Origin: Schmidtea polychroa
Taxonomy: Eukaryota
Direction: 5' to 3'
Assembly: GCA_044892525.1 (NCBI GenBank)
Contig: CM097885.1
Location: 34,598,001 to 34,662,000, forward strand
DNA length: 64,000 nt
The position numbers were made by a program, and so were the translations under genes. Position 1 is the stretch's first letter, and every line of letters begins with the position of its first letter. The notes below the pieces were generated by a model that worked only from the letters and a program-made list of their open reading frames with translations, was not told where the DNA came from and made no database searches. Below are positions 14,989 to 48,628 of this stretch, one piece after another.

Positions 14989-15025
14989 TTTTCAATATCT
15001 TTGATATTAATAAGGCTTGATGAAC
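14989..15025 (-). CDS. DGKZ: DGK exon (37 nt, inter-ankyrin)
   Basis: aag| ... |gtgag. Encodes (C)SSSLINIKDIE(K); phases 1 and 2 match both neighbours. Confidence 0.85.
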
Positions 15026-15083
15026 CTTAATAAATATAAAAAAATAATTTACAAGTGAAATAATGACATATAGAGATATTTAC

Positions 15084-22300: not shown

Positions 22301-23141
22301 ACAAATTAGGAGCAACTGGTTGTTTTTCATTGATAAAGTTGTTGAAATTCTCAACACATTACTTTTTTCTACAAAAGTCAATTGTAATGTTTTTCTATAT
22401 TGTGTCCATTTTACTTGTTTGGTCTGTCAAATATTTTGATACATGGTAAGAATGCAATTAAGAATATTATAAACATTTTATCTCTTTTAGGAAACACAAA
22501 ATTGTTTTAAAATTAAAAAAGTAAATTATTTTAAAATGTTATTTTATTTATTTATATATAGAAAGAATTTAAAATATAAACTATAGTTTCAAATTATGTA
22601 CGAAAATCTTGAATGTTGAAATTTTAAAATATCTGTTAAAATTGTCGATATCAGAATTTTTATTTGTTATTTACACTGTTATTAAATAAAATAATTTTTT
22701 TTTATTTTTCTTTATAATTTAAGTTAATGTGTACTCAGTTTTATTAAACACGATTTAAATTAAAAGATTTCGAATGTTCACTTGAAAATTCATTTCAAAT
22801 TCAATTGAAAAAGGCAGTGCCGAAAATTCGTGAGTATCAAAAAACATCGATATATTACTGATTTATAGTCTTCAAGCTCTCTTTTTAATAATTTTTTTTA
22901 ATATTCAAAGAAAAATTAATTTAAAAATGTTAAAATTAAATAATTAAAAATATTTTAATAAAAAACATCAAAAACTGTAATAAATATTTAATTTTAAGAA
23001 TTTATGAACGTGATTTAATTCATGATCATTTTAGTACAATAAACATTAAAACTTAGAATGAAATATTTACTTGAAAGTCTCATTAATTAAAACTGTCATT
23101 ATTAAAATTATAAAAATAATTTTAAATATTTTTAGACGAAG

Positions 23142-23198
<57 letters not shown>

Positions 23199-23204
23199 TA
23201 TTAC

Positions 23205-23302
23205 CTTTATTTAACATATCCATGTACGAATTTCTTCTCTGTTGTAATCGCTTTTCCATTGATGGAGGGATTAGAGAAGCTGTGTTGGAATCAGTTGTAA
23301 CG
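23205..23302 (-). CDS. DGKZ: DGK exon (linker)
   Basis: ttccttag| ... G|gtaata. Encodes VTTDSNTASLIPPSMEKRLQQRRNSYMDMLNK; the phase-1 end matches the ankyrin exon. Confidence 0.75.
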
Positions 23303-23344
23303 CTAAGGAAAATTAAACATTGAAATAAAATGAAAATGACAAAC

Positions 23345-23567
23345 TTGCATGAGCACCTCCTTTGCATAAATGCTTCAGCCAATACAGCTTTTTGAGACTC
23401 TTTTGAAATTCCTTCATCAATTAAATGTTGAAGTATTAATTCAGGAAGTGGTGGAGCATTTCTTAATTTATTATCTAGAATATAAATATCTTCTGAGCTG
23501 ATATCAGTAACAAAATGCATTGATTCTTGAGCGCGATCTATTCTAAAGAACCTTTCAGTTGTTGTGG
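23345..23567 (-). CDS. DGKZ: DGK exon
   Basis: Encodes (S)TTTERFFRIDRAQESMHFVTDISSEDIYILD..., matching the DGKzeta motif [31 protein letters not shown]. The donor is ambiguous (GT at 23344 or 23356). Confidence 0.88.
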
Positions 23568-23616
23568 CTAGTTAAAGAAAGTTTTTTTAATATATTTATA
23601 ATAAAAAATTACTAAC

Positions 23617-24149: not shown

Positions 24150-25199
24150 CTATTAAACTATAAAATCTGTAAATTTCAAAACTAATAAAAATTTAAAGCG
24201 TAATAAAATGAGAAAAATCGACAGCCTAGATGACTCAATGGTAATCTATTCAACAAAAATCAATAATAGACACGGTTAAAATCCCAAGTAAAACTATTTT
24301 TTATAAACTAATTTTAATTCTGTTTTAATATAACAACTATTAAGGAAATTTATTTTTTTGTGTCGGAGGATATTTTTAGAAGAAAAAAATCAGGAACAAG
24401 TCTCAAAGGTGAGCTGAAGAAATATTCGATGCGCTGGACAGTAACCTGACATTAATGTCATTATCAAATTTTGTTATATTTAATTTAATGCGATTATTTT
24501 TTTTCATTTTTAAATGGTTGTTTAATTGTTTTATTTTTTCCTTATGAAATTAACAAAAAAAAGTTTATGATATAATTTTCTTTAATGCTGTGAAATATTT
24601 TTTCTGTAATTGAAACTCAAATTTTTCAAAGATTCTCCTCAGTCAGAGAAACTGATGAAATTGTTGTCAATTGGATATGGTTATTTCTAAAATAGGTAAT
24701 TGAATTCGATGAGTGAACATATATTATCCGGGAAAAAATTTAATTTAAAAATATTTGATTAATCAGTGACTGAAATAAAGTTTGTGAATTTTGTTATTAT
24801 TTTTCCGATTATTTTTAAAATATTTTTATTGCTTTCTTGGTAAACTTGACAATTAAAAATTCAAAAAGACAAAAGAATAAAATTTTGTCTAAATGTATCT
24901 AATTATTAAAATTTATTTATAGAATTGAAATTCAATATCAAAAGAATTTACAGGTAAAATAAAACAAAAAATAAAAAATAAAAATAATAAATAAAATAAT
25001 AAATAAATAAAAATAAATAAATAAAAATAATGCCAGTTTTTTTCTCAGTTAATAGTAGGTAGATAGTAGCGCACGGGAACAATTACCCCCCGGGGGGGGG
25101 GGGGGGGGGGGGGGTAAAATTGTTCCAACTTTTTATTACGCAATTGTTCCAACTCACATTTTTTGCTTTCAGGGATTTTTGGTACAAATTTTTTTTTAT

Positions 25200-26005
25200 C
25201 AGACTATAGTGAGGGGGTCTCGATGGTCCTGGGATTTTCAATACAAAAAAATTTTTTCTATACAAAAATCCGACTATCAATAAAAAAGCATGGATTTTTC
25301 ACACTATAGTGAGGGGGTCTCGATGGTCCTGGGATTTTCAATACAAAAATCCGACTACCACTAAAAAAGCATGGAATTTTCAGACTATAGTGAGGGGGTC
25401 TCGATGGTCCTGGGATTTTCAATACAAAAATCCGACTACCACTAAAAAAGCATGGAATTTTCAGACTATAGTGAGGGGGTCTCGATGGTCCTGGGATTTT
25501 CAATACAAAAAAAATTTTTCAATACAAAAATCCGACTACCAATAAAAAAGCATGGTAATTTAAGGTCTCAGGATATTTTCAATACAAAAATCCGACTACC
25601 ACTAAAAAAGCCAAGGATTTTTCACACTATAGTGAGGTGAGTCTCCTTGGTCCTGAGAAATAGGTGGTCTACACTAAAAAAACGTGGTAATTTAAGGTCT
25701 CAGGATATTTTCAACACAAAAAGCTGGTCTACACTAAAAAAGCATGGTAATTTAAGGTCTCAGGATATTTTCAATACAAAAATCCGACTACCACTAAAAA
25801 AGCCAAGGATTTTTCAGACTATAGTGAGGTGAGTCTCCTTGGTCCTGAGAAATAGGTGGTCTACACTAAAAAAACGTGGTAATTTAAGGTCTCAGGATAT
25901 TTTCAATACAAAAATCCGACTACCACTAAAAAAGCCAAGGATTTTTCAGACTATAGTGAGGTGAGTCTCCTTGGTCCTGAGAAATAGGTGGTCTACACTA
26001 AAAAC
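25200..26005 (+). repeat. Subterminal modular tandem array, left arm (~55-75 bp units: GACTATAGTGAGG..., AAGGTCTCAGGATATTTTCAA...)
   Basis: Repeated units are visible directly; the inverted, longer counterpart is at ~44545-46070. Confidence 0.9.
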
Positions 26006-26014
26006 GTGGTAAAT

Positions 26015-26250
26015 TTTTCAATTAAAGTAAATTATGGTTCTAAAAATTGAAATTAAAGTAAATAATGGTCCAAATTTTAAAATTAAAGTAAATTATGGTT
26101 CTAAAAATTAAATTATAGTAAATTATGGCTCAAATTTTTAAATTACAGTAAATTATGGTCCTAAAAAATTAAATTACAGTAAATTATGGTCCTAAAAAAT
26201 TAAATTACAGTAAATAATGGTCCAAATTTTTAAATTAAGTAATCAATGGT
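26015..26250 (+). repeat. ~30-bp tandem array (AAATTACAGTAAATTATGGTCCTAAA-type), left arm
   Basis: About 8 units here; the inverted counterpart at ~43945-44540 has about 20 units. Confidence 0.85.
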
Positions 26251-26577
26251 AAAAAATTTTAAATAAGTAAATTAAAGTAATAATTTTTAAATAAGTAAAT
26301 TAAAGTAATGTAATAAGTAAATTAAAGTAAGATTTTAAAATTTAATTACAAAATAATAGAAGGTGTTTGAGAATTGAAATTTTTTAATGAAAATTTTTAT
26401 GAAATAATTTTTAAGTAATTTTTAATAGAAATTTTAATGAAATATTTTTCAATGGTAATTTTTAATGGAAATTTTTAAGAAATATTTTTCAATGATAATT
26501 TTAGATGGAAATTTTTAAGATAATTTTTAATGGAAATTTTTATGAAATATTTTTCAAAGCAAATTTTAATAATAATT

Positions 26578-27320
26578 CAACAACAAACCAACAACTTAGT
26601 ACCAACATGTATTTACAACCAGATACTTACAACTAGTTACTAACAACCAGTTACCTGATACCAAGTACCTACAACTAGTTACTAACAACCAACTACTTAC
26701 AACTAGTTACTAACAACCAGTTACCTGCTATCAAGTACTTACAACTAGTTACTAACAACCAGTTACCTGCTACCAAGTACTTACAACTAGTTACTAACAA
26801 CCAACTACTTACAACTAGTTACTAACAACCAGTTACCTGCTATCAAGTACTTACAACAAGATACCAAGTACTAAGCACTGTCAACTAGATACCAAACACT
26901 TACAACTAGATACCACGTACTAACTAACTCTCAAACAATTAGTTACTAACAATCAGTTACCTGCTACCAAGCACTCAACCGTCAACAACCAGTTACTAAG
27001 CATTATTAACCAACTACTAAGTACCTACAATCCACCTACCCATTAACTAGCTACAACCACCTAACAACCAATTACCTTCAACTAGTTACTAACAACTAGT
27101 TACCTGATAGCAACCAACTAGGTACCAGATACCAAGTACTAACAACCAGTTACCAACTACTAAGCATTAATTACCTACAACTAGTTACTAACAACTAGAT
27201 ACCAAGTACATACAACCAACATCAACCAGATACTAAGCATTATCAACCAAGTACTAACAACCAAGTAACTTACCAAGTACTAAGCACTGTCAACTAGATA
27301 CCAAACACTTACAACCAGAT
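26578..27320 (+). repeat. A/C-rich degenerate array (ACAACTAGTTACTAACAACC), left arm
   Basis: Direct reading; inverted copy at ~42900-43615. Confidence 0.9.
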
Positions 27321-27738
27321 GACCACATGAAATTAATGGTTAAATATGAAAATAAGGATTATATTTAGTTGTTAAGTAAATTATGGTGTAAAATTAAGAA
27401 ATAAAGAATAATTAGGTAAATTAAAGTAATAATTTTTAAAAAAGTAAATTAAGGTTCAAAATTTAAAATTAAGTAATAAATGGTTCAAATTTTAAATTAA
27501 AGCTAAAGAAGTAAATTAAAGTAATAATTTTTAAATAAGTAATGTAATAAGTAAATTAAACTAAGATTTTTAAATTTATTATCAAAAGATTGAATAACCA
27601 CCAACTTTTTTGAGAAATGTAATTTTTAATGAAAATTTAAATGGAAATTTTTTTTTAAGTTAATTTTAAATGTAAAATTTTTTAAGTAAATTTTAATGAA
27701 ATAATTTTTTAAGTTAATTTTGAATGAAAATTTTAATG

Positions 27739-27787
<49 letters not shown>

Positions 27788-28259
27788 TCAACAATCAGTT
27801 ACCAACAACCAGATACTAATTATTTTTCACTATGTGCTAAGAAATAAGTACCAAATACTTTCAACACGATACCACGTACTAACTAACTCTCAAACAACCA
27901 CATACTTACAACTAACTACTAAATATTCTTTATTGTATTTTATGAAATGCTTTTTAAATTAATTTTTTATCTGTCTTCAAAAATATGTTTAATTACAATC
28001 AGTAGAAAAAATCTTTTCAAATTTAACAAAAATGTTGATTTTCATCAAAAAATAATTGACAACTCATCACCACGTGAAATTCAAAATAATTTAAGTTACA
28101 ATGAAAGACTAATGAATTCTAATTTACAAAACATTCTTCTTTTAAATGATAACTACTGACTTATTATTGCAAAGTAAAAATCACATTCAATAAATACTTA
28201 TTATTGATCAGTTTTATTATATATACTCTGAGTTTATCCGACAGGATGTTTTGACCCCC

Positions 28260-28349
28260 TAAGGGTACTGGTCGTAAGGGTACTAGTCGTAAGGGTACTG
28301 GTCGTAAGGGTACTGGTCGTAAAGGTACTAGTCGTAGGGGTATTGGTAA
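28260..28349 (+). repeat. 15-bp tandem repeat TAAGGGTACTRGTCG, ~6 copies
   Basis: Direct reading; inverted copy at ~41822-41911. Confidence 0.92.
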
Positions 28350-31300
28350 CACTCAACCACAACCTACCCATTAACTAGCTACTATGTACTAACCACTAGG
28401 TTTCAAACAACAACTACTAACAACCACCATCAAAACCCATCGAGAAATTAACAAATATCAACCTACAACTATATAACAACAATCAGTAAACAACACTGTA
28501 CCAACTACCAAATACAAAATATTCTTCATCACATACACTATTTTCTTATCAAAATCTAAAAAGTCAACCAACTACTTACAACCAACAACTATGTAGTAAC
28601 AAATTAATCTTTAAAAGAAAAATACTCATCACTTGAAAAATTAGATGGAAAATTAATTGAACTCAAGGCATCAATAACTAGGTAAAAATTGATTAAATAA
28701 TTGTAAAAATTTAAATTATTCGAAATAAATATCATAAAAATTAAATTAATGGACAGGAAAAAATTCTAGTCATTAATCATCAAGTAAATAAAAAAAATAC
28801 TGATCATTCAAGTTGAATCAACTAAGTTAATAAATTAATAAAATTTTAAATAAAATCTAATAGATAATTGATTTAGATTGAATAAATTAATTGAAATAAA
28901 ATTAATTTTAATTATTTTTGTAAAAGTAATACATGTACTCAAATTGATTGACTGATTTCTCAATATATTCAAAAATCAGTATAAATTCATTACAAATATT
29001 GGATGAAAAATTAATTGAACTCAAGACATCAATAACTTGGTAAAAATTGATTAAATAATTGTAAAAATTTTAAATTTTCAAAATAAGTGTCATAAAAATG
29101 TAATTAATGGACAAGAAAGAACTTTAAATTCTAGTCATTGATCATTCAAGTTAATATGAATCAACTAAGATAATAAATTAATAAGAATTTTGAAATAAGA
29201 TCTAGTAGATAATTGATTTAGATTGAATAAATTAATTGAAATAAAATTAATTTTAATTATTTTTTTAAAAGTAATACATGTACTCAAATTGATTGACTGA
29301 TTTCTCAATATATTCAAAAAATCAGTATAAATTCATTACAATTATCAAAGTCAGCAATCTACAATAAAAATAATTATCATTAAATTCCAAAAGAGACTAG
29401 ATAACTAATGATAACATCTAACAAACCAGTAAATTCATTCAAATGACAATAATTGGTATATCCAAGTGAATTCTCCAATAAAATCATCTAAAAAGCATCA
29501 TTTTCCCCCTAAATATATCAATATTTAAAGATTGCTATTTTAATGATAAATACTTGTTAAAGATCATATATTCTCCTCAAACTAATAAGATTCCTTAAAA
29601 TCCCTTAAATGGCTATATTTCAACCCTTAATTCATATTATTACAAATAATTCATTAAGATCATCTAAAAAGCATCATTTCCCCTAAATATATCAATATTT
29701 AAAGATTGATATTTTAATGATAAGTACCCGTAAAGGATCATATATTCCCCTCAGACTAATAAGATTCCTTAAAATCCCCTTTAAATGACTATAATTCTAA
29801 CTTTAATTCGTATTATCACGAATATTTCCCTATAAAACATGTAAAATCATTAACCCTAAATAATTTATAAAATCTAATGATAAAACTGGTTATAATTAAT
29901 TTTTTGTTAATCACTGTACTCGATATTTTAAATAAATATTACTACAATATAACTGACTAGGTCCCATTGAAAGATTTATCCATTCAATAAAATATATTTC
30001 TTCAAATGATCATTTTTACCAATATTCAACCGATTTAATTACTAATTAAAATCAAGATTTCTTCCAATAAAGATCAATTTTCTTTAGTCGATGTTTTAAG
30101 TCCATATTTATCAACTTTTGTCATTCTCCCTCTTAAATAAAGATAAAAATAATTTAAAGTTGATATCAATCCAAATTATCTCTAAAGATTTCATTGTCAA
30201 AACCAAGTAAATCGGTCATTAACACTACTTAATAAAACCCTGGATAATTAAAAGAAAATTTAATAAAACATTGTTCTAAAACATAAATCTAAATTAATAT
30301 ACAATGAATTAATCACAACCTAATAAAACGATATAATTTCACATTATTAGTGATTCATAACTGACTAATTGCAATTTCCCTTAAAACATTGATATTTTAC
30401 CAACATTACCCATGTAAATATTCAAAAGATTCCCATCGAAACCCATCCCTCATTAAAAGCAACCGACTATATCTTTCTTAAAATGAAATATTTCCCATAT
30501 TAACCGACTATATCCCTTTAAAAATCATATATTCCCATCTTAACCCATCCCTCATTAAATCTCACCGACAATATCCCATCTTATCCGATCTCTCAGCAAA
30601 TATTTCTACCCCCCCTCATTAAATTTAACCGACAATATCCCATCTTATCCGATCTCTCAGCAAATAATTCTACCCTTTTAAACATCTATCCGATTATATC
30701 CCTTATTTTCCCTAAAGATTCCGCCCACTTGAGCCCTTTAATATATATCAATCCTCTTAAAATCCTCAGAGAAATTCAAAAATATGACTTTTAATTAATT
30801 GTTATAGAACCAGACAAATAATAAGAGCCCATTAAAAGATCAAAATTCACTAAATTTTCTACAAATATTTACCATCAAATACTGGAGATGATATATATTG
30901 TTTGATCATAATTCTTCAGCTATTCAACCAATCATTTTCAAGCAATAACAGCAAACTAAATTTCTGTATATCCTACAATAATTATCAAGTAAATTTAAAG
31001 TTAACTGGTTTCTTAGCTTATGTTTTTTAAAGTTCATCAATGAGTAAATTATTGAAAAAATTATTTAGTCAAATATATTACAAAGTTATCATCAAAAATC
31101 ACTTAATTATTAACCTAATTGTCAATGAAATTAATTTTTATTTAAAAACTATTCAATAAAATACAACTAATTATCAAGAAATTAATTAAATTTATCAATT
31201 AAATTTATCAGTCAACATGAAAGTTTTAGAAAATTGTTCAATATCCTCATAAAAATTTATCATATCACTTGATTATTGTAAAAACTCTAATTATTAACCT

Positions 31301-31408
31301 CATTGAAAATAATTTTTATTTAAAAACTATTCAATAAAATACAACTAATTATCAAGAAATTAATTAAATTTATCTTAGAACTAACTTTAAATATTCATTC
31401 AATAAACA

Positions 31409-31685
31409 TGAAATTCACAAGAATGATAAAAATCCACAAAATGATAGAAATTCACAAAAATAATAGAAATTCACAAAAATAATAGAAATTCACAAAATTG
31501 ATAAAAATTCACAAAAAACGATAAAAATTCACAAGAATGATAGAAATTCACAAGAATGATAAAAATCCACAAGAATAATAGAAATTCATAAAAATGATAG
31601 ATATCCACAAAAAATTACGGAAATTCATGAAAATATTAGAAATTCACGTTTTCATGATGGAAATTCACAAAAATTATAGAAATTT
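31409..31685 (+). repeat. ~20-bp tandem array (GAAATTCACAAAAATGATA)
   Basis: Also at ~33920-34174 (-), 36215-36510 (+) and 38822-39120 (-). Confidence 0.9.
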
Positions 31686-32349
31686 ACTTGAATAAAACCA
31701 TCAACTCTAAAAATTATGAATACCTTAAACATCAAATTTGCTTAAATTCAAATAAAAGCATTAAATACCTTTACGACTAATACCCTTGCGACATGTTGAA
31801 TGTGAGTAGTACCCTTGTGAGCAATACCCATAGGGGGACAGAATATTTTGTCGGATAAACTCAGAGTATATATTAATTAACTCATTCTTCATTGAATTAG
31901 TCAAATTATCATAATTTCAATAAAAATTCTAAAGTGGTAAGCAATGAAAAGACAATTATTCTTTAAACTTTGATAAAATTAACAATGAAGGTGGTAAGAA
32001 TCTTCATTAAAGTGAGGAAATTATTCATTACTCGATTCAAATGGGTGAAAGTAATTGGTAGAATAATTCATTAATGGAGGTAGATAATGAGAATTAGTAT
32101 AGATAAGATGAAGGTTGATAAGAATGGATGTATTGCAACTATTTTCTAAAAATTAACACTTTAATAAAAAAAACTTTTAAAACAAATATTTGTGGGGATG
32201 TATTAAGTGAATAATTAATGGAGAATCGGGGGAATATAGGAGATTAAATAGTGGGATAATGAGAATCGGTGGAATATAAGTGAGAAGGATATGTAATTTA
32301 AACTATTTTATTACGTAACAAGCCGCGACTAGTTTATTACATAACAAGC

Positions 32350-33281
32350 GGTGAATGATATTTTACCAACATTATACATGGTATATAATTTTAATTTTAA
32401 TTGTATTTTTAAATTGTATATATTTTCAATATCATTCTATTGTTTAATACCAATAATAAGTATAAAAAGTCTATAATGATTAATAAATTAATATCTTGTT
32501 AACATTTAACTGAAAATTTAAAAAACTTTACTTAAAATTTAGTGAAATATTTAATTTTGATTGTATTTTATAAGACATATATTTGAGTATTAACTTATTT
32601 TGATTGAAGTATTATATTCAATATTATGATGATTTTTTTTTCTAAATTAAAATATTTTAGTGTAAAATAGTAAATTTAATAATGAATAGAATACAATATT
32701 AAATGACTTTTTAAAAAGAAAAATTACTTTCTATTACCTAATTCCATCATTAAGTTTAAAAAGTCTATAACTGTTAATAAATCAATTTCTTATTCACATT
32801 TTCTTATAAAACTTATATTTTTAAATTTAGTGTAAAGAATTTAATTTTAATTGTATTTTATAAGTCATTTATTTGAATATTTATCTTATTTTTATTGAAA
32901 GGAGTAATATAATTAATAATATGATAATTGATTTTGAAATATTTAGTGTAGAATAATAAATTTATTAATAAATAATTATTACAATATTAAAGGACTTATA
33001 CAACAAATTTTTTGTCTTATTCCATAAAAAAGTTTTAAAGTATATAACTGGTAATAAATAATTTTTCTTATTTACATTTATTTAAAAAAGCTTTACTTAT
33101 AAAATTTATATTTTCTAAGACTTATATTTGAATATTAACTTATTTTGATTGAAAAGGGTAATTGATTTAGAAATTATTTAGTGTAAATCAAAACATTTAA
33201 ATTATTAAGGTATTAAAGTACCTATTCAAAAATTAAAAAAAAAAGACCTAATCAATAATTCTCAATAAAATACCATACACA
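32350..33281. other. 932-bp non-palindromic spacer (loop) of the giant hairpin, copy 1
   Basis: Self-complementarity stops at 32349 and resumes at 33282. A second copy in the same orientation is at 37175-38106. Confidence 0.88.
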
Positions 33282-36200
33282 GCTTGTTATGTAATAAAAT
33301 AGTTTAAATTACATATCCTTCTCACTTATATTCCACCGATTCTCATTATCCCACTATTTAATCTCCTATATTCCCCCGATTCTCCATTAATTATTCACTT
33401 AATACATCCCCACAAATATTTGTTTTAAAAGTTTTTTTTTATTAAAGTGTTAATTTTTAGAAAATAGTTGCAATACATCCATTCTTATCAACCTTCATCT
33501 TATCTATACTAATTCTCATTATCTACCTCCATTAATGAATTATTCTACCAATTATTTTCACCCATTTGAATCGAGTAATGAATAATTTCCTCACTTTAAT
33601 GAAGATTCTTACCACCTTCATTGTTAATTTTATCAAAGTTTAAAGAATAATTGTCTTTTCATTGCTTACCACTTTAGAATTTTTATTGAAATTATGATAA
33701 TTTGACTAATTCAATGAAGAATGAGTTAATTAATATATACTCTGAGTTTATCCGACAAAATATTCTGTCCCCCTATGGGTATTGCTCACAAGGGTACTAC
33801 TCACATTCAACATGTCGCAAGGGTATTAGTCGTAAAGGTATTTAATGCTTTTATTTGAATTTAAGCAAATTTGATGTTTAAGGTATTCATAATTTTTAGA
33901 GTTGATGGTTTTATTCAAGTAAATTTCTATAATTTTTGTGAATTTTTATCAATTTTGTGAATTTCCATCATGAAAACGTGAATTTCTAATATTTTCATGA
34001 ATTTCCGTAATTTTTTGTGGATATCTATCATTTTTATGAATTTCTATTATTCTTGTGGATTTTTATCATTCTTGTGAATTTCTATCATTCTTGTGAATTT
34101 TTATCGTTTTTTGTGAATTTTTATCAATTTTGTGAATTTCTATTATTTTTGTGAATTTCTATTATTTTTGTGAAAATAATTATCATTAAATTCCAAAAGA
34201 GACTAGATAACTAATGATAACATCTAACAAACCAGTAAATTCATTCAAATGACAATAATTGGTATATCCAAGTGAATTCTCCAATAAAATCATCTAAAAA
34301 GCATCATTTTCCCCCTAAATATATCAATATTTAAAGATTGCTATTTTAATGATAAATACTTGTTAAAGATCATATATTCTCCTCAAACTAATAAGATTCC
34401 TTAAAATCCCTTAAATGGCTATATTTCAACCCTTAATTCATATTATTACAAATAATTCATTAAGATCATCTAAAAAGCATCATTTCCCCTAAATATATCA
34501 ATATTTAAAGATTGATATTTTAATGATAAGTACCCGTAAAGGATCATATATTCCCCTCAGACTAATAAGATTCCTTAAAATCCCCTTTAAATGACTATAA
34601 TTCTAACTTTAATTCGTATTATCACGAATATTTCCCTATAAAACATGTAAAATCATTAACCCTAAATAATTTATAAAATCTAATGATAAAACTGGTTATA
34701 ATTAATTTTTTGTTAATCACTGTACTCGATATTTTAAATAAATATTACTACAATATAACTGACTAGGTCCCATTGAAAGATTTATCCATTCAATAAAATA
34801 TATTTCTTCAAATGATCATTTTTACCAATATTCAACCGATTTAATTACTAATTAAAATCAAGATTTCTTCCAATAAAGATCAATTTTCTTTAGTCGATGT
34901 TTTAAGTCCATATTTATCAACTTTTGTCATTCTCCCTCTTAAATAAAGATAAAAATAATTTAAAGTTGATATCAATCCAAATTATCTCTAAAGATTTCAT
35001 TGTCAAAACCAAGTAAATCGGTCATTAACACTACTTAATAAAACCCTGGATAATTAAAAGAAAATTTAATAAAACATTGTTCTAAAACATAAATCTAAAT
35101 TAATATACAATGAATTAATCACAACCTAATAAAACGATATAATTTCACATTATTAGTGATTCATAACTGACTAATTGCAATTTCCCTTAAAACATTGATA
35201 TTTTACCAACATTACCCATGTAAATATTCAAAAGATTCCCATCGAAACCCATCCCTCATTAAAAGCAACCGACTATATCTTTCTTAAAATGAAATATTTC
35301 CCATATTAACCGACTATATCCCTTTAAAAATCATATATTCCCATCTTAACCCATCCCTCATTAAATCTCACCGACAATATCCCATCTTATCCGATCTCTC
35401 AGCAAATATTTCTACCCCCCCTCATTAAATTTAACCGACAATATCCCATCTTATCCGATCTCTCAGCAAATAATTCTATCCTTTTAAACATCTATCCGAT
35501 TATATCCCTTATTTTCCCTAAAGATTCCGCCCACTTGAGCCCTTTAATATATATCAATCCTCTTAAAATCCTCAGAGAAATTCAAAAATATGACTTTTAA
35601 TTAATTGTTATAGAACCAGACAAATAATAAGAGCCCATTAAAAGATCAAAATTCACTAAATTTTCTACAAATATTTACCATCAAATACTGGAGATGATAT
35701 ATATTGTTTGATCATAATTCTTCAGCTATTCAACCAATCATTTTCAAGCAATAACAGCAAACTAAATTTCTGTATATCCTACAATAATTATCAAGTAAAT
35801 TTAAAGTTAACTGGTTTCTTAGCTTATGTTTTTTAAAGTTCATCAATGAGTAAATTATTGAAAAAATTATTTAGTCAAATATATTACAAAGTTATCATCA
35901 AAAATCACTTAATTATTAACCTAATTGTCAATGAAATTAATTTTTATTTAAAAACTATTCAATAAAATACAACTAATTATCAAGAAATTAATTAAATTTA
36001 TCAATTAAATTTATCAGTCAACATGAAAGTTTTAGAAAATTGTTCAATATCCTCATAAAAATTTATCATATCACTTGATTATTGTAAAAACTCTAATTAT
36101 TAACCTCATTGAAAATAATTTTTATTTAAAAACTATTCAATAAAATACAACTAATTATCAAGAAATTAATTAAATTTATCTTAGAACTAACTTTAAATAT

Positions 36201-39200
36201 TCATTCAATAAACATGAAATTCACAAGAATGATAAAAATCCACAAAATGATAGAAATTCACAAAAATAATAGAAATTCACAAAAATAATAGAAATTCACA
36301 AAATTGATAAAAATTCACAAAAAACGATAAAAATTCACAAGAATGATAGAAATTCACAAGAATGATAAAAATCCACAAGAATAATAGAAATTCATAAAAA
36401 TGATAGATATCCACAAAAAATTACGGAAATTCATGAAAATATTAGAAATTCACGTTTTCATGATGGAAATTCACAAAATTGATAAAAATTCACAAAAATT
36501 ATAGAAATTTACTTGAATAAAACCATCAACTCTAAAAATTATGAATACCTTAAACATCAAATTTGCTTAAATTCAAATAAAAGCATTAAATACCTTTACG
36601 ACTAATACCCTTGCGACATGTTGAATGTGAGTAGTACCCTTGTGAGCAATACCCATAGGGGGACAGAATATTTTGTCGGATAAACTCAGAGTATATATTA
36701 ATTAACTCATTCTTCATTGAATTAGTCAAATTATCATAATTTCAATAAAAATTCTAAAGTGGTAAGCAATGAAAAGACAATTATTCTTTAAACTTTGATA
36801 AAATTAACAATGAAGGTGGTAAGAATCTTCATTAAAGTGAGGAAATTATTCATTACTCGATTCAAATGGGTGAAAGTAATTGGTAGAATAATTCATTAAT
36901 GGAGGTAGATAATGAGAATTAGTATAGATAAGATGAAGGTTGATAAGAATGGATGTATTGCAACTATTTTCTAAAAATTAACACTTTAATAAAAAAAACT
37001 TTTAAAACAAATATTTGTGGGGATGTATTAAGTGAATAATTAATGGAGAATCGGGGGAATATAGGAGATTAAATAGTGGGATAATGAGAATCGGTGGAAT
37101 ATAAGTGAGAAGGATATGTAATTTAAACTATTTTATTACGTAACAAGCCGCGACTAGTTTATTACATAACAAGCGGTGAATGATATTTTACCAACATTAT
37201 ACATGGTATATAATTTTAATTTTAATTGTATTTTTAAATTGTATATATTTTCAATATCATTCTATTGTTTAATACCAATAATAAGTATAAAAAGTCTATA
37301 ATGATTAATAAATTAATATCTTGTTAACATTTAACTGAAAATTTAAAAAACTTTACTTAAAATTTAGTGAAATATTTAATTTTGATTGTATTTTATAAGA
37401 CATATATTTGAGTATTAACTTATTTTGATTGAAGTATTATATTCAATATTATGATGATTTTTTTTTCTAAATTAAAATATTTTAGTGTAAAATAGTAAAT
37501 TTAATAATGAATAGAATACAATATTAAATGACTTTTTAAAAAGAAAAATTACTTTCTATTACCTAATTCCATCATTAAGTTTAAAAAGTCTATAACTGTT
37601 AATAAATCAATTTCTTATTCACATTTTCTTATAAAACTTATATTTTTAAATTTAGTGTAAAGAATTTAATTTTAATTGTATTTTATAAGTCATTTATTTG
37701 AATATTTATCTTATTTTTATTGAAAGGAGTAATATAATTAATAATATGATAATTGATTTTGAAATATTTAGTGTAGAATAATAAATTTATTAATAAATAA
37801 TTATTACAATATTAAAGGACTTATACAACAAATTTTTTGTCTTATTCCATAAAAAAGTTTTAAAGTATATAACTGGTAATAAATAATTTTTCTTATTTAC
37901 ATTTATTTAAAAAAGCTTTACTTATAAAATTTATATTTTCTAAGACTTATATTTGAATATTAACTTATTTTGATTGAAAAGGGTAATTGATTTAGAAATT
38001 ATTTAGTGTAAATCAAAACATTTAAATTATTAAGGTATTAAAGTACCTATTCAAAAATTAAAAAAAAAAGACCTAATCAATAATTCTCAATAAAATACCA
38101 TACACAGCTTGTTATGTAATAAACTAGTCACGGCTTGTTATGTAATAAACTAGTCGCGGCTTGTTACGTAATAAACTAGTCGCGGCTTGTTATGTAATAA
38201 AATAGTTTAAATTACATATCCTTCTCACTTATATTCCACCGATTCTCATTATCCCACTATTTAATCTCCTATATTCCCCCGATTCTCCATTAATTATTCA
38301 CTTAATACATCCCCACAAATATTTGTTTTAAAAGTTTTTTTTTATTAAAGTGTTAATTTTTAGAAAATAGTTGCAATACATCCATTCTTATCAACCTTCA
38401 TCTTATCTATACTAATTCTCATTATCTACCTCCATTAATGAATTATTCTACCAATTATTTTCACCCATTTGAATCGAGTAATGAATAATTTCCTCACTTT
38501 AATGAAGATTCTTACCACCTTCATTGTTAATTTTATCAAAGTTTAAAGAATAATTGTCTTTTCATTGCTTACCACTTTAGAATTTTTATTGAAATTATGA
38601 TAATTTGACTAATTCAATGAAGAATGAGTTAATTAATATATACTCTGAGTTTATCCGACAAAATATTCTGTCCCCCTATGGGTATTGCTCACAAGGGTAC
38701 TACTCACATTCAACATGTCGCAAGGGTATTAGTCGTAAAGGTATTTAATGCTTTTATTTGAATTTAAGCAAATTTGATGTTTAAGGTATTCATAATTTTT
38801 AGAGTTGATGGTTTTATTCAAGTAAATTTCTATAATTTTTGTGAATTTTTATCAATTTTGTGAATTTCCATCATGAAAACGTGAATTTCTAATATTTTCA
38901 TGAATTTCCGTAATTTTTTGTGGATATCTATCATTTTTATGAATTTCTATTATTCTTGTGGATTTTTATCATTCTTGTGAATTTCTATCATTCTTGTGAA
39001 TTTTTATCGTTTTTTGTGAATTTTTATCAATTTTGTGAATTTCTATTATTTTTGTGAATTTCTATTATTTTTGTGAATTTCTATCATTTTGTGGATTTTT
39101 ATCATTCTTGTGAATTTCATGTTTATTGAATGAATATTTAAAGTTAGTTCTAAGATAAATTTAATTAATTTCTTGATAATTAGTTGTATTTTATTGAATA

Positions 39201-42200
39201 GTTTTTAAATAAAAATTATTTTCAATGAGGTTAATAATTAGAGTTTTTACAATAATCAAGTGATATGATAAATTTTTATGAGGATATTGAACAATTTTCT
39301 AAAACTTTCATGTTGACTGATAAATTTAATTGATAAATTTAATTAATTTCTTGATAATTAGTTGTATTTTATTGAATAGTTTTTAAATAAAAATTAATTT
39401 CATTGACAATTAGGTTAATAATTAAGTGATTTTTGATGATAACTTTGTAATATATTTGACTAAATAATTTTTTCAATAATTTACTCATTGATGAACTTTA
39501 AAAAACATAAGCTAAGAACCAGTTAACTTTAAATTTACTTGATAATTATTGTAGGATATACAGAAATTTAGTTTGCTGTTATTGCTTGAAAATGATTGGT
39601 TGAATAGCTGAAGAATTATGATCAAACAATATATATCATCTCCAGTATTTGATGGTAAATATTTGTAGAAAATTTAGTGAATTTTGATCTTTTAATGGGC
39701 TCTTATTATTTGTCTGGTTCTATAACAATTAATTAAAAGTCATATTTTTGAATTTCTCTGAGGATTTTAAGAGGATTGATATATATTAAAGGGCTCAAGT
39801 GGGCGGAATCTTTAGGGAAAATAAGGGATATAATCGGATAGATGTTTAAAAGGGTAGAATTATTTGCTGAGAGATCGGATAAGATGGGATATTGTCGGTT
39901 AAATTTATTGAGGGGGGGGGTAGAAATATTTGCTGAGAGATCGGATAAGATGGGATATTGTCGGTGAGATTTAATGAGGGATGGGTTAAGATGGGAATAT
40001 ATGATTTTTAAAGGGATATAGTCGGTTAATATGGGAAATATTTCATTTTAAGAAAGATATAGTCGGTTGCTTTTAATGAGGGATGGGTTTCGATGGGAAT
40101 CTTTTGAATATTTACATGGGTAATGTTGGTAAAATATCAATGTTTTAAGGGAAATTGCAATTAGTCAGTTATGAATCACTAATAATGTGAAATTATATCG
40201 TTTTATTAGGTTGTGATTAATTCATTGTATATTAATTTAGATTTATGTTTTAGAACAATGTTTTATTAAATTTTCTTTTAATTATCCAGGGTTTTATTAA
40301 GTAGTGTTAATGACCGATTTACTTGGTTTTGACAATGAAATCTTTAGAGATAATTTGGATTGATATCAACTTTAAATTATTTTTATCTTTATTTAAGAGG
40401 GAGAATGACAAAAGTTGATAAATATGGACTTAAAACATCGACTAAAGAAAATTGATCTTTATTGGAAGAAATCTTGATTTTAATTAGTAATTAAATCGGT
40501 TGAATATTGGTAAAAATGATCATTTGAAGAAATATATTTTATTGAATGGATAAATCTTTCAATGGGACCTAGTCAGTTATATTGTAGTAATATTTATTTA
40601 AAATATCGAGTACAGTGATTAACAAAAAATTAATTATAACCAGTTTTATCATTAGATTTTATAAATTATTTAGGGTTAATGATTTTACATGTTTTATAGG
40701 GAAATATTCGTGATAATACGAATTAAAGTTAGAATTATAGTCATTTAAAGGGGATTTTAAGGAATCTTATTAGTCTGAGGGGAATATATGATCCTTTACG
40801 GGTACTTATCATTAAAATATCAATCTTTAAATATTGATATATTTAGGGGAAATGATGCTTTTTAGATGATCTTAATGAATTATTTGTAATAATATGAATT
40901 AAGGGTTGAAATATAGCCATTTAAGGGATTTTAAGGAATCTTATTAGTTTGAGGAGAATATATGATCTTTAACAAGTATTTATCATTAAAATAGCAATCT
41001 TTAAATATTGATATATTTAGGGGGAAAATGATGCTTTTTAGATGATTTTATTGGAGAATTCACTTGGATATACCAATTATTGTCATTTGAATGAATTTAC
41101 TGGTTTGTTAGATGTTATCATTAGTTATCTAGTCTCTTTTGGAATTTAATGATAATTATTTTTATTGTAGATTGCTGACTTTGATAATTGTAATGAATTT
41201 ATACTGATTTTTTGAATATATTGAGAAATCAGTCAATCAATTTGAGTACATGTATTACTTTTAAAAAAATAATTAAAATTAATTTTATTTCAATTAATTT
41301 ATTCAATCTAAATCAATTATCTACTAGATCTTATTTCAAAATTCTTATTAATTTATTATCTTAGTTGATTCATATTAACTTGAATGATCAATGACTAGAA
41401 TTTAAAGTTCTTTCTTGTCCATTAATTTAATTTTTATGATATTTATTTCGAATAATTTAAATTTTTACAATTATTTAATCAATTTTTACCTAGTTATTGA
41501 TGCCTTGAGTTCAATTAATTTTCCATCTAATTTTTCAAGTGATGAGTATTTTTCTTTTAAAGATTAATTTGTTACTACATAGTTGTTGGTTGTAAGTAGT
41601 TGGTTGACTTTTTAGATTTTGATAAGAAAATAGTGTATGTGATGAAGAATATTTTGTATTTGGTAGTTGGTACAGTGTTGTTTACTGATTGTTGTTATAT
41701 AGTTGTAGGTTGATATTTGTTAATTTCTCGATGGGTTTTGATGGTGGTTGTTAGTAGTTGTTGTTTGAAACCTAGTGGTTAGTACATAGTAGCTAGTTAA
41801 TGGGTAGGTTGTGGTTGAGTGTTACCAATACCCCTACGACTAGTACCTTTACGACCAGTACCCTTACGACCAGTACCCTTACGACTAGTACCCTTACGAC
41901 CAGTACCCTTAGGGGGTCAAAACATCCTGTCGGATAAACTCAGAGTATATATAATAAAACTGATCAATAATAAGTATTTATTGAATGTGATTTTTACTTT
42001 GCAATAATAAGTCAGTAGTTATCATTTAAAAGAAGAATGTTTTGTAAATTAGAATTCATTAGTCTTTCATTGTAACTTAAATTATTTTGAATTTCACGTG
42101 GTGATGAGTTGTCAATTATTTTTTGATGAAAATCAACATTTTTGTTAAATTTGAAAAGATTTTTTCTACTGATTGTAATTAAACATATTTTTGAAGACAG

Positions 42201-42383
42201 ATAAAAAATTAATTTAAAAAGCATTTCATAAAATACAATAAAGAATATTTAGTAGTTAGTTGTAAGTATGTGGTTGTTTGAGAGTTAGTTAGTACGTGGT
42301 ATCGTGTTGAAAGTATTTGGTACTTATTTCTTAGCACATAGTGAAAAATAATTAGTATCTGGTTGTTGGTAACTGATTGTTGA

Positions 42384-42480
<97 letters not shown>

Positions 42481-45400
42481 CATTAAAATTTCATTCAAAA
42501 TTAACTTAAAAAACTATTTCATTAAAATTTACTTAAAAAATTTTACATTTAAAATTAACTTAAAAAAAAATTTCCATTTAAATTTTCATTAAAAATTACA
42601 TTTCTCAAAAAAGTTGGTGGTTATTCAATCTTTTGATAATAAATTTAAAAATCTTAGTTTAATTTACTTATTACATTACTTATTTAAAAATTATTACTTT
42701 AATTTACTTCTTTAGCTTTAATTTAAAATTTGAACCATTTATTACTTAATTTTAAATTTTGAACCTTAATTTACTTTTTTAAAAATTATTACTTTAATTT
42801 ACCTAATTATTCTTTATTTCTTAATTTTACACCATAATTTACTTAACAACTAAATATAATCCTTATTTTCATATTTAACCATTAATTTCATGTGGTCATC
42901 TGGTTGTAAGTGTTTGGTATCTAGTTGACAGTGCTTAGTACTTGGTAAGTTACTTGGTTGTTAGTACTTGGTTGATAATGCTTAGTATCTGGTTGATGTT
43001 GGTTGTATGTACTTGGTATCTAGTTGTTAGTAACTAGTTGTAGGTAATTAATGCTTAGTAGTTGGTAACTGGTTGTTAGTACTTGGTATCTGGTACCTAG
43101 TTGGTTGCTATCAGGTAACTAGTTGTTAGTAACTAGTTGAAGGTAATTGGTTGTTAGGTGGTTGTAGCTAGTTAATGGGTAGGTGGATTGTAGGTACTTA
43201 GTAGTTGGTTAATAATGCTTAGTAACTGGTTGTTGACGGTTGAGTGCTTGGTAGCAGGTAACTGATTGTTAGTAACTAATTGTTTGAGAGTTAGTTAGTA
43301 CGTGGTATCTAGTTGTAAGTGTTTGGTATCTAGTTGACAGTGCTTAGTACTTGGTATCTTGTTGTAAGTACTTGATAGCAGGTAACTGGTTGTTAGTAAC
43401 TAGTTGTAAGTAGTTGGTTGTTAGTAACTAGTTGTAAGTACTTGGTAGCAGGTAACTGGTTGTTAGTAACTAGTTGTAAGTACTAGGTAGCAGGTAACTG
43501 ATTGTTAGTATCTAGTTGTAGGTACTTGGTATCAGGTAACTGGTTGTTAGTAACTAGTTGTAAGTATCTGGTTGTAAATACATGTTGGTACTAAGTTGTT
43601 GGTTTGTTGTTGAATTATTATTAAAATTTGCTTTGAAAAATATTTCATAAAAATTTTCATTAAAAATTATCTTAAAAATTTCCATCTAAAATTATCATTG
43701 AAAAATATTTCTTAAAAATTTCCATTAAAAATTACCATTGAAAAATATTTCATTAAAATTTCTATTAAAAATTACTTAAAAATTATTTCATAAAAATTTT
43801 CATTAAAAAATTTCAATTCTCAAACACCTTCTATTATTTTGTAATTAAATTTTAAAATCTTACTTTAATTTACTTATTACATTACTTTAATTTACTTATT
43901 TAAAAATTATTACTTTAATTTACTTATTTAAAATTTTTTACCATTGATTACTTAATTTAAAAATTTGGACCATTATTTACTGTAATTTAATTTTTTAGGA
44001 CCATAATTTACTGTAATTTAAAAATTTGAGCCATAATTTACTATAATTTAATTTTTAGAACCATTATTTACTTTAATTGAAAAATTTGGACCATTATTTA
44101 CTTTAATTTAAAATGTTTGACCATAATTTACTGTAATTTAATTTTTAGACCATAATTTACTGTAATTTCAATTTTTAGAACCATAATTTACTTTAATTCA
44201 ATTTTTAGAACCATTATTTACTGTAATTGAAATATTTGAGCCATAATTTACTTTAATTTAATTTTTAGAACCATTATTTACTTTAATTTAAAAATTTGGA
44301 CCATAATTTACTGTAATTTAAAAATTTGAGCCATAATTTACTGTAATTTTATTTTTTAGAACCATAATTTACTGTAATTTAATTTTTTAGGACCATAATT
44401 TACTGTAATTTAAAAATTTGAGCCATAATTTACTATAATTTAATTTTTAGAACCATAATTTACTTTAATTTTAAAATTTGGACCATTATTTACTTTAATT
44501 TCAATTTTTAGAACCATAATTTACTTTAATTGAAAAATTTACCACGTTTTTAGTGTAGACCACCTATTTCTCAGGACCAAGGAGACTCACCTCACTATAG
44601 TCTGAAAAATCCTTGGCTTTTTTAGTGGTAGTCGGATTTTTGTATTGAAAATATCCTGAGACCTTAAATTTCCATGCTTTTTTAGTGTAGACCAGCTTTT
44701 TGTGTTGAAAATATCCTGAGACCTTAAATTACCACGTTTTTTTAGTGTAGACCACCTATTTCTCAGGACCAAGGAGACTCACCTCACTATAGTCTGAAAA
44801 ATCCTTGGCTTTTTTAGTGGTAGTCGGATTTTTGTATTGAAAATATCCTGAGACCTTAAATTACCACGTTTTTTTAGTGTAGACCACCTATTTCTCAGGA
44901 CCAAGGAGACTCACCTCACTATAGTCTGAAAAATCCTTGGCTTTGTTAGTGGTAGTCGGATTTTTGTATTGAAAATATCCTGAGACCTTAAATTACCATG
45001 CTTTTTTAGTGTAGACCAGCTTTTGTGTTGAAAATATCCTGAGACCTTAAATTACCACGTTTTTTTAGTGTAGACCACCTATTTCTCAGGACCAAGGAGA
45101 CTCACCTCACTATAGTCTGAAAAATCCTTGGCTTTTTTAGTGTAGACCAGCTTTTTGTATTGAAAATATCCTGAGACCTTAAATTACCATGCTTTTTTAG
45201 TGTAGACCAGCTTTTCGTATTGAAAATATCATGAGACCTTAAATTACCACGTTTTTTTAGTGTAGACCACCTATTTCTCAGGACCAAGGAGACTCACCTC
45301 ACTATAGTCTGAAAAATCCTTGGCTTTGTTAGTGGTAGTCGGATTTTTGTATTGAAAATATCCTGAGACCTTAAATTACCATGCTTTTTTAGTGTAGACC

Positions 45401-46571
45401 AGCTTTTGTGTTGAAAATATCCTGAGACCTTAAATTACCACGTTTTTTTAGTGTAGACCACCTATTTCTCAGGACCAAGGAGACTCACCTCACTATAGTC
45501 TGAAAAATCCTTGGCTTTTTTAGTGTAGACCAGCTTTTTGTATTGAAAATATCCTGAGACCTTAAATTACCATGCTTTTTTAGTGTAGACCAGCTTTTCG
45601 TATTGAAAATATCATGAGACCTTAAATTACCACGTTTTTTTAGTGTAGACCACCTATTTCTCAGGACCAAGGAGACTCACCTCACTATAGTCTGAAAAAT
45701 CCTTGGCTTTGTTAGTGGTAGTCGGATTTTTGTATTGAAAATATCCTGAGACCTTAAATTACCATGCTTTTTTAGTGTAGACCAGCTTTTGTGTTGAAAA
45801 TATCCTGAGACCTTAAATTACCACGTTTTTTTAGTGTAGACCACCTATTTCTCAGGACCAAGGAGACTCACCTCACTATAGTCTGAAAAATCCTTGGCTT
45901 TTTTAGTGGTAGTCGGATTTTTGTATTGAAAATCCCAGGACCATCGAGACCCCCTCACTATAGTGTGAAAAATCCATGCTTTTTTATTGATAGTCGGATT
46001 TTTGGATAGAAAAAATTTTTTTGTATTGAAAATCCCAGGACCATAGAGACCCCTTCACTATAGTCTGATAAAAAAAAATTTGTACCAAAAATCCCTGAAA
46101 GCAAAAAATGTGAGTTGGAACAATTGCGTAATAAAAAGTTGGAACAATTTTACCCCCCCCCCGGGGGGGGGGGGGGGGTAATTGTTCCAGTGCGCTACTA
46201 TCTACCTACTGTTTATATTTCTACCTTGCTAAATTTTATGCTTCTGTCTTTAAAAGTTTATAAGAAAATTATATCGTCGAGATAAAACAATTATAGTTGA
46301 ACAAATTAAATTTTCCCATGGTCTTTTTCGACATTCAAAACATTTAGATAAATTAAATAAATTATTAAGAAGATAATATAAATTTATTTTCTCCTTTCAG
46401 TTTTAATTGGCATAATCACTGATCTTTGCAGTTGCAATTCTTTTTAGAAATGTTCAAGTTTTATTCCTTTTCGTCACTTTCTACACTAAAAGAAACAATT
46501 GAGTGGTAATATTAAAAGCTAGTTGATAAAATATAGCGCATCTCATCTATTAGAATGACATTTGCATTTAA

Positions 46572-46785
46572 CACTAGATTTACGGACTGAGTCAATTTGA
46601 CTCATTTAAAATTCTATTGCTGCATATATATATAATAGTGATTTATTATTTTTTGAATACATATGTTGGCTTTACGTCATGAAATATAGGTAAATATTAA
46701 TTACTCTCCTCTACTGACTCTGTCATTTAAAATTGGCTTACTTCAGTAAAAAATAAGTATATAATCAACACCCGTAAATATTGTG
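46572..46785. mobile_element. piggyBac-type MITE (214 bp)
   Basis: TTAA|CACTAGATTTACGG ... CCGTAAATATTGTG|TTAA; TIR match 12/14. Confidence 0.75.
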
Positions 46786-48628
46786 TTAATAATATTATTA
46801 TTTCATTTAATAACATTATTATTTTCAATTGACAGTATTTATAATTTATATTTTAGATATTTTATTTATGTATTATAAGAACTTTTTTGTCCAATTTCAC
46901 CACTGATTTTTTTTCCATTGAATTTATTAAAAAGAGCTTGAAGATTATAAATCAGTAATATATCAAAAACATCGATATATTACTGATTTATAGTTTTCAA
47001 GCTCTTTTTAATAAATTTTATTTATGATAAATATAAATGACTGCAATGTTTAAATGGAAAAAAAAAGTTTAAATGAACAAATGAGGGAGAATAAGGAAAA
47101 CATTTATTACAATATGACGAGTTTCCTTTACTCATTTTCATAATTGTATAGATCAAGTTAAATTAGACATGTAATTTAACAAATTTAAATAACTAATTAA
47201 AAAATTGTATATTAATTAATTAAATAAGCATATGTAAATAATAATATATTAACAATATGATTATAATATAAATTAGTAATTTAAAATAATAGAATGTTTG
47301 TAGAATGACATTTTCTTGCTCAAAATATTACTGGCATAAAATAATCCTCTTGTTTTAATATTATTATTAATAATAAATCTTGAATTTTCGATAAACTTTT
47401 AAAGTAATTGACCCCGTCAATACTCGGGTTACGCAGTTTAACATGGCGCATGCTGATTGGGATAAAGTTTTTGAAAGTGCCATTTGATTAGTTATGAAGA
47501 ATTTAATTTAAAAATAGTAATCATTTGTAATTTCAAATATTACATTTTTATATAATATTTACTTAATTTTTATGAAGACAGTGTTTAACTTTAAAATAAA
47601 AATGACTTTCAAAATATGAATTAATAAATGATGATAAATGGGTTAAGAGATATTACTTTCCAGATTTTTAAAATTAATAATTTTTGCAAAATTACTTTAG
47701 TATTGATAAGTTATATAGTATGTGCAATTCTAATAAAACAATTTACAAATTATTTTTTTTACATTTAAAAATCGATTTAATTTGGTGATTACAGTTCATA
47801 CCATATATGTCCAATGATACAAACTTTTAAAATTAGAACTGTAAAATATATTAATCCCCATTTGGGGATTACAATAACTAATCGTTTAACAGTAACTTAA
47901 TGGTCCCTACTTTATACTTTAAAATGTGACAATTTAAACGGTATTGTTGGACTAATATTCACAAATAATCAAATATTTTACAGCTACCAAGAAACAAACA
48001 ATGTTTTTAATAAATATTTTTTATAAATATTTCAGTATTGTATTTATTGTTTTTATTGACAGGCAGTAAACATTGAAACATGCAAAACAGTATTTCAACA
48101 ATATTTCAAAAAAATTTAAATTGACAAATTGACTTTTCTGGATTTAGTTTTGTAGATTTTTTAATTATTATCATAATTAATATTTTCTGTCGTATCTTTT
48201 CCGACATGCATTATAGAGAGATTTGTTAGCCTTTGGTCTCCCACTGAATTTCTGAAAATTGTCTTTAACTCGTTTGAACATTGAAAATTATCTCTTTTAT
48301 TAACTATAATTAGAAATGTGTCAAAAAGATTGTAAAAAAGAACTTATTTATTTATTATTCTTGTTTCCATCTTTCAAAGAAACACAAGTTCAGTTATGGT
48401 TTCATTTCTACAGACGATACATTAAAGTATCTTGTTTTCCAGTAAATAATTGGTATTTGATTCTTGCATTTCCAGTAGTATACAATTTGATGGTCTCAAT
48501 TTAATGTATAATTAAAAATTTCACAATTTACATAGTTTCTCTATCGATTTTATAAGACTTTATATTCTAGGAAGTGACAAAATCCATATTTCGAAAAATG
48601 TTTCTGAACTATAAATATTTATCAAAAG

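Follow-up and report, generated by a model that had tools for sequence, protein, structure and literature searches.

The palindrome and its host intron

We analysed a window of 64,000 nucleotides from Schmidtea polychroa (GenBank assembly GCA_044892525.1, contig CM097885.1, forward-strand positions 34,598,001 to 34,662,000). Between positions 25054 and 46210 of the window lies a palindromic insert whose arms of 7.3 and 8.1 kb enclose a loop of ~0.95 kb and make up ~94% of the element. The block order A-B-C-D-C'-B-C-D-C'-B'-A', which an earlier note on this DNA had read from the letters, was confirmed by self-BLAST and k-mer diagonals. Its ends are also those of a gene-bearing Polinton of the same genome, called the helper below, which carries a protein-primed DNA polymerase (pPolB). 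The element very probably represents a real, gene-less palindromic satellite lineage of this resident Polinton/Maverick family, mobilised by Polinton functions. Its features are as follows.

25048..25053, plus strand: left target-site duplication (TSD), GTTAAT, 5/6 match with the right copy
25054..25220, plus strand: left terminus, AGTAG reiteration and C/G tract, common to gene-bearing Polintons
25221..26600, plus strand: subterminal repeat arrays (81/192/132-bp and 30/13-bp units); terminus plus arrays form the ~1.5 kb common to pPolB-bearing ends
26601..29366, plus strand: inner part of arm A (14/28-bp minisatellite, repeat copy, AAT run, 15-bp repeat); helper origin not found
25054-29366: segment A as a whole (self-BLAST and k-mer diagonals)
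29367..31450, plus strand: segment B, C-skewed non-coding filler; an 18-mer from it has 2,424 exact genome matches
31451..32323, plus strand: segment C, inner stem with a 19-bp minisatellite
32324..33281, no strand: loop D, ~0.95 kb, ~81% AT, framed by 26-bp units
33282..34174, minus strand: C', mirror of C, ending at the duplication junction
34173..39077, plus strand: second tandem B-C-D-C' copy, with three additional 26-bp units at 38103-38206
39078..46210, minus strand: right arm B'-A' (B' 39078-41162, A' 41163-46210) to the right terminus
46211..46216, plus strand: right TSD, GTTTAT; junction letters found in contigs of runs X1 and X3

The ends of the element read AGTAGGTAGATAGTAG and CTACTATCTACCTACT and are exact mirror images of each other. 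The arms had been described as reverse complements out to the last base; this is true of these end letters, whereas the arms as a whole are 93-99% alike and carry unequal repeat numbers. In self-BLAST, left-right identity is 93.1% at the tip, 95.1% over 26020-28999 and 98.8% over 28994-32349, and the ~192-bp unit is present in 2.2 copies in the left arm versus 5.9 in the right. The flanking GTTAAT (25048-25053) and GTTTAT (46211-46216) agree at 5/6 letters, as expected of the claimed 6-bp TSD with one mismatch. Left arm and loop together hold just two GC-rich islands. The 26-bp unit that frames the loop (32305-32350, 38103-38206) contains short palindromes and occurs in 1 to 4 copies. The two tandem B-C-D-C' copies are 99.5% identical across 3,956 bp in self-BLAST and, over the whole unit, are set apart by a single substitution, a 19-bp unit and 78 bp. 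This internal duplication measures 4.8 kb, its junction at 34173/34174 shows 2-3 A of microhomology, and without it the element would be ~16.3 kb long.

The claim that the 21 kb hold no credible open reading frame stood up to closer inspection: the longest stop-to-stop frames are 110 and 104 aa, both in repeats. When eight helper proteins or fragments were used as tblastn queries (E 0.01), no match fell inside the window element or 10 further copies, and the sole match lay in a flank. Pfam gave no match for three arm frames, and Rfam gave none at E 0.1 over 24500-46800 or at E 10 over 25054-33300. Hidden arm genes, considered for the window and the same 10 copies, were rejected, as the frames listed are translations of repeats. 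The element therefore lacks the pPolB and retroviral-type integrase of an autonomous Polinton, both present in the co-resident helper, and also the capsid module (major capsid protein, protease, packaging ATPase), which the helper has with a weak ATPase match.

Exons of a diacylglycerol-kinase gene lie collinearly on the minus strand on both sides of the element, which is thus an insertion within an intron of that gene.

61325-61874, minus strand: DAGK_acc and DGKI profile positions 11-39
23122-23571, minus strand: DGKI profile positions 105-138
14469-15288, minus strand: ankyrin exons

Elsewhere in the window, a 545-aa open frame with long terminal repeat (LTR) retrotransposon RNase H and integrase reaches the window edge (1-1635, plus strand), and a broken pogo/Tigger-like transposase spreads CENP-B_N, HTH_Tnp_Tc5 and DDE_1 across three frames (57761-59395, minus strand).

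A dispersed family and its gene-bearing helper

We searched the host assembly (781 Mb, 1,012 contigs) with short motifs of the element. Exact matches to the terminal 17-mer number 4,049 (2,024 forward, 2,025 reverse), against 0 for its reversed control, so they are not due to chance. At 29 of 30 terminus loci the match begins at the identical base, with unrelated flanks. Among the first 100 listed matches of the segment-B 18-mer, 60 form inward pairs ~5.3 kb apart and none an outward pair. A 17-mer of the 26-bp unit has 3,215 genome matches, and 16 of 20 loops framed by it span 0.7-1.2 kb (first 100 matches listed). The layout of arm, 26-bp units, ~1-kb loop and mirror arm recurs across the genome, and the counts suggest gene-less elements on the order of 1,000.

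Ten copies were analysed further, taken from the 40 best loop-D matches, a choice that biases their lengths and loop divergence. Perfect 6-bp TSDs, differing in sequence from copy to copy, flank 7 of the 10, which provides the additional gene-less palindromes with different TSDs that the earlier note had proposed to look for. The nine copies with both ends are 13.7-17.9 kb long. Multimeric forms also occur (G000:C1:12799098-12835428 and 25670903-25689821), with two framed 7-kb loops 16.7 kb apart inside one terminus pair, and with three same-strand arm motifs 6.67 kb apart. At L019, L027 and probably L017, L022 and L028, the termini adjoin, in the outer flanks, genes for pPolB or ATPase-like proteins that belong to other Polinton families; these are nested insertions. 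In the flank of L011 (1620-3200), one frame matches a viral fusion glycoprotein and then an aspartyl protease, resembling the env-bearing giant LTR elements described in PMC6431247.

Genes for protein-primed polymerases are abundant in this genome, with 8,821 first-look candidates; all 91 that were scored exceeded the cut-off. At 5 of the 30 terminus loci (L007, L018, L020, L024, L025) the 3' end of pPolB lies directly inside the shared terminal and subterminal repeats, with a PF03175 match on L018. One such gene-bearing element, G000:C1:10478630-10495204, measures 16,575 bp and has a terminal 17-mer identical to that of the window family. In addition to pPolB it carries Pfam matches to rve integrase (E 1.3e-8), Adeno_PX (E 2.1e-6) and Peptidase_C5 (E 4.5e-5), and a weak match to the A32 ATPase (E 0.023). 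A 408-aa protein of this helper, with 138 homologues, gave no match in Pfam and PDB sequence searches. Its model has a mean predicted confidence (pLDDT) of 90.7, and the best fold matches were iridovirus and PBCV-1 capsids (E ~1e-15), with Sputnik and mavirus also found; by its modelled fold it is a double-jelly-roll capsid protein. The predicted gene content of the helper is the canonical Polinton set, as given in PMC8097293 and PMC10748475.

The autonomous partner that the earlier note had postulated was thus found in large part: a co-resident Polinton with the same termini, pPolB, integrase, protease and capsid, the weak ATPase and the broken integrase frame falling short. The family shares its termini with gene-bearing Polintons both by pPolB (5 of 30 loci) and by the capsid motif (5 of 34 terminus pairs, below). 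Its reading as a non-autonomous element with Polinton ends is supported by the 6-bp TSDs and the co-resident Polinton with the same terminal motif. Mobilisation in trans by Polinton functions is likewise well supported at the level of sequence, because a helper with the same terminus exists and the TSDs are 6 bp long. On C1 the exact capsid motif matches 98 times, which extrapolates to ~280 genome-wide. Loose capsid and integrase motifs (2,053-2,411 matches, the degenerate capsid motif having 2,411 genome-wide) were rejected as helper counts, since most listed matches lie outside family termini. At G000:C1:213932416-213944498, four integrase motifs on one strand ~4.0 kb apart form a tandem array of a helper segment.

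Motif coordinates were then mapped onto the first 100 termini listed (C1:0-14.4 Mb), yielding 34 adjacent pairs less than 40 kb apart. Gene-less-arm motifs occupy 22 of the pairs, two outward pPolB ends 5 and one pPolB end 6; the last pair measures 307 bp. The capsid motif is present in five of the six pairs with one pPolB end, at lengths of 8.2, 16.6, 17.1, 20.9 and 20.9 kb. The excess of gene-less over capsid-bearing pairs in this stretch (22 against 5) is compatible with interference with helper replication and is no test of it.

All five pPolB-pPolB pairs carry one terminal variant and no capsid motif. The mirrored pPolB open frames are of equal length in four of them (871/871, 1301/1301, 1331/1331 and 1214/1214) and of 757 and 779 in the fifth. 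Examples, 11-16 kb long, lie at G000:C1 2663675-2677166, 9092710-9106037 and 14263195-14279491. The pPolB-end motif has 1,069 matches; of the first 100 listed, 68 stand in outward pairs, a median of 11.4 kb apart, against 2 inward pairs. Judged by coordinates, these palindromes look like a true snap-back form, a mirrored right helper end that has spread as its own lineage. Inward pairs of capsid and integrase motifs (G000:C1:67843162-67853028 and 216072319-216081596; C2:2390256-2393424) are apparently mirrored left helper ends. By motif coordinates, the pair at G000:C1:4717073-4732320 has a gene-less arm on its left and, on its right, a helper end bearing integrase; this combination suggests that the classes recombine.

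Origin of the arms and exchange between copies

Likeness between the arms and the helper's terminal repeat is confined to the outer ~1.5 kb. Three inner-arm motifs (one at 1.5 kb, one at 5.1 kb, one in the loop frame) had no exact match in the 5 capsid-bearing and 5 pPolB-pPolB pairs of the 14.4-Mb stretch. Likewise, 4 kb of helper sequence compared by blastn and tblastx with the window and with 50 loci yielded no match. From its letters, the inner arm is filler without detected helper origin, its layout conserved as that of a separate lineage. Since the inner-arm motifs were not found in those helper-type pairs, nor remnants of helper genes in the arm, 'satellite' fits the element better than 'copy-back genome', the likeness that the earlier note had drawn.

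A literal copy-back (snap-back) defective genome, in which each palindrome mirrors one helper end and arises repeatedly, is an unlikely origin for the gene-less class. By coordinates it does suit the sister class, with its preponderance of outward over inward pPolB-end pairs, its equal mirrored frames in 4 of 5 pairs and the few inward capsid and integrase pairs. The gene-less arm, in contrast, holds no detected helper gene remnant beyond ~1.5 kb, helper-type elements lack exact matches to its inner motifs, and its single recurring layout points to one founder amplified as a unit. Alternatively, the gene-less arm could stem from an old snap-back that has since decayed past recognition.

It is very improbable that assembly fold-back created the family or the internal duplication of the window copy. 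One of the 10 copies, L049:600-9518 / L050:421-9340, is a palindrome with 100% identity across 8,920 bp that takes in ~430 bp of flank on each side and has no TSD; it is either an assembly fold-back or a true inverted duplication. No read spanning the window element or the duplication junction was seen, and that junction was found at 0 of 52 loci examined. Several observations speak against an artefact: repeat number and haplotype are unequal between the arms, the element is flanked by TSDs and by collinear exons belonging to a single host gene, the tandem copies differ at three places, and same-strand arm-motif repeats 5.9-6.7 kb apart occur at other loci (4 spacings among 100 matches listed). 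At the right junction, contigs of X1 and X3 show no difference from the window; they reach past it by just 26 and 19 letters, short of the 31-letter threshold of the tool, and the assembly may itself derive from X1. For the family as a whole, the TSDs and the unequal arms make an assembly artefact untenable. Among the contig ends listed for four runs over 46100-47700, no empty-site join of the window was seen, a result uninformative either way; coverage by X5 and X6 is missing at 46262-46315 and 46424-46531.

Equally hard to sustain is the reading as a foldback element of the FB, Galileo or Mutator-like type that a cut-and-paste transposase of its own family would move. Very long arms built from internal tandem repeats, with copy numbers that vary from arm to arm, are shared with and typical of foldback elements, but FB, Galileo and Mutator-like families make TSDs of 7-11 bp rather than the 6 bp seen in 7 of 10 copies, they use a cut-and-paste transposase without link to a protein-primed polymerase, and the ends in question enclose pPolB, integrase and capsid genes.

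Within the satellite lineage, the arms are mosaics. Five low-repeat probes of 230-450 bases were compared across 22 arms, each probe being present in 17-21 of them. Elements differ from one another by ~4% on average. Between the two arms of one element, a probe diverges by 0-0.4% or by 2-8% (one value is 0.9%), with switches along the arm; the series for copy L031/L032 is 0, 0, 0, 8.0 and 5.2%, and copy L047/L048 has unlike terminal variants at its two ends and a perfect TSD. Distances correlate between probes at 0.38 where these lie ~1 kb apart and at about 0 where they lie 3-4 kb apart; two neighbouring pairs give 0.38 and 0.30, other neighbours 0.11-0.12. The pattern fits correction within a fold-back strand combined with exchange between molecules.

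Proposed replication, possible packaging and known relatives

Protein-primed strand-displacement replication of the adenovirus/phi29 type is established. By analogy, the helper's protein-primed polymerase would prime at either AGTAG end and displace one strand, which could fold into a 7-kb stem with a 1-kb loop and so restore a double-stranded origin with no need of a partner molecule. Synthesis along the stem would equalise the two arms, whereas annealing or template switching between different molecules would produce mixed arm types. The resulting duplex would be inserted by the helper's retroviral-type integrase. The 4.8-kb duplication of the window copy may reflect a template switch at the short A microhomology.

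Several points weigh against this account of a Polinton-mobilised satellite. The TSD is missing in 3 of 10 copies (one with unlike flanks, one that lost its left end, one whose fold-back continues into the flanks), and that of the window element carries one mismatch. The helper integrase is split over two frames, so that the 16,575-bp copy may be inactive, and helper interior was read as 4 kb of one element (two 2-kb samples) plus pPolB ends. The end motif AGTAGG, which the gene-bearing helper has as well, agrees with the published (AGT)2 at only 5/6 letters. Loop D diverges by 0.2-0.9% among copies that had themselves been selected by loop D; its conservation was rejected as evidence of function for that reason. 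Low probe correlations can be noise or the mark of a star-shaped history, and gene conversion acting on elements already inserted could likewise make their arms mosaic and leave the TSDs intact. All replication steps are inferred, none observed.

Non-autonomous DNA transposons usually shrink. In the mapped stretch, 19 of the 34 pairs are 13-18 kb long, 4 are below 10 kb and 1 is below 3 kb. Packaging in helper capsids is possible, and a capsid size limit is our leading guess, held tentatively, for the retained helper length. Counter to it, 11 of 34 pairs fall at 10-13 kb or above 18 kb and the window copy is oversize; helper-like length may merely be inherited from a recent founder. The 21-kb length, which had been offered as compatible with a packaging constraint, does not serve as evidence for one: through its internal duplication the window copy exceeds the helper (16.6-17.1 kb) by roughly a quarter, and it is the family's usual 14-18 kb, not the 21 kb, that matches helper length. 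More doubtful still is a three-part virus population of the germ line, in which a complete helper, a pPolB-pPolB palindrome and a non-coding satellite padded to capsid length would all be packaged in helper capsids and recombine as free linear DNA, the latter two together outnumbering the helper several-fold. If this were true, the loop and its 26-bp frame would serve as a signal for packaging or replication, and the length distribution of the satellite would be indirect evidence of Polinton particles forming in an animal.

Related systems are known. Non-autonomous Polintons exist in Repbase, and linear protein-primed plasmids form palindromic or hairpin derivatives, as adenovirus forms palindromic minichromosomes, in which a fold-back strand regenerates the end. 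These are replicated in trans from terminal origins and are deletion or mirror products of their helpers. We know of no stable lineage of ~1,000 copies with its own filler among protein-primed palindromic derivatives.

Published Polinton/Maverick end motifs are (AGT)2//(ACT)2 or (AG)3//(CT)3 (PMC8097293). PMC8097293, PMC10748475 and PMC6431247 give a mean length of 16.9 kb for vertebrate Polintons and terminal inverted repeats (TIRs) of 46-1,447 bp in vertebrates or of 100-1,500 bp. The family resembles them in its 6-bp TSD, its AG...CT ends and a length near that vertebrate mean. It differs in that the window element has no genes, arms of 7.3 and 8.1 kb instead of the TIRs of about 50-1,500 bp of autonomous Polintons, and the end motif AGTAGG. 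Butterfly polintons, according to bioRxiv 10.1101/2025.02.07.637071, have ~2-kb TIRs holding hexon and adenain, and polB-less derivatives that are apparently mobile. They share enlarged TIRs that duplicate internal content; their TIRs are gene-bearing and short beside the non-coding arms that form ~94% of the window element (the sister class bears pPolB).

The closest functional analogy is with the non-coding satellites of begomoviruses. PMC4756297 describes these, together with begomovirus defective DNAs, as small single-stranded DNA circles, one quarter or one half as large as the helper, whose encapsidation has been demonstrated. By the definition given there, a satellite lacks replication genes and is mostly unlike its helper, and this describes the window element. 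Both are non-coding, mostly unlike the helper save for origin-type signals, built of AT-rich filler and of a size tied to the helper (PMC4756297); the begomovirus satellites are circles, whereas the window element is a linear, integrating palindrome of helper length whose packaging is putative. Our literature search, outside which lay Repbase, the founding Polinton paper, a 2015 review and supplements, found no helper-length gene-less palindromic Polinton derivatives; PMC11662393 contained nothing that bears on them. New here are the demonstrated same-ended helper, the pPolB-pPolB class and the arm mosaics.

These findings bear on a replication model for Polintons that is drawn largely by analogy, and the mosaic arms are a record of recombination between copies. 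Maverick particles had not been observed according to the abstract of PMC8097293; since this gene-less element, unlike ordinary miniature derivatives, keeps its length, the question of packaging can be put to the test with nothing more than genome sequence and DNA extracts. Screens that start from polymerase and integrase genes, as described in PMC8097293 and PMC10748475, miss a gene-less class, which may therefore be widespread and uncounted. For the host, ~1,000 copies of ~16 kb would amount, as a rough estimate, to about 2% of the genome, and kilobase hairpins in introns are a likely source of rearrangement and assembly error.

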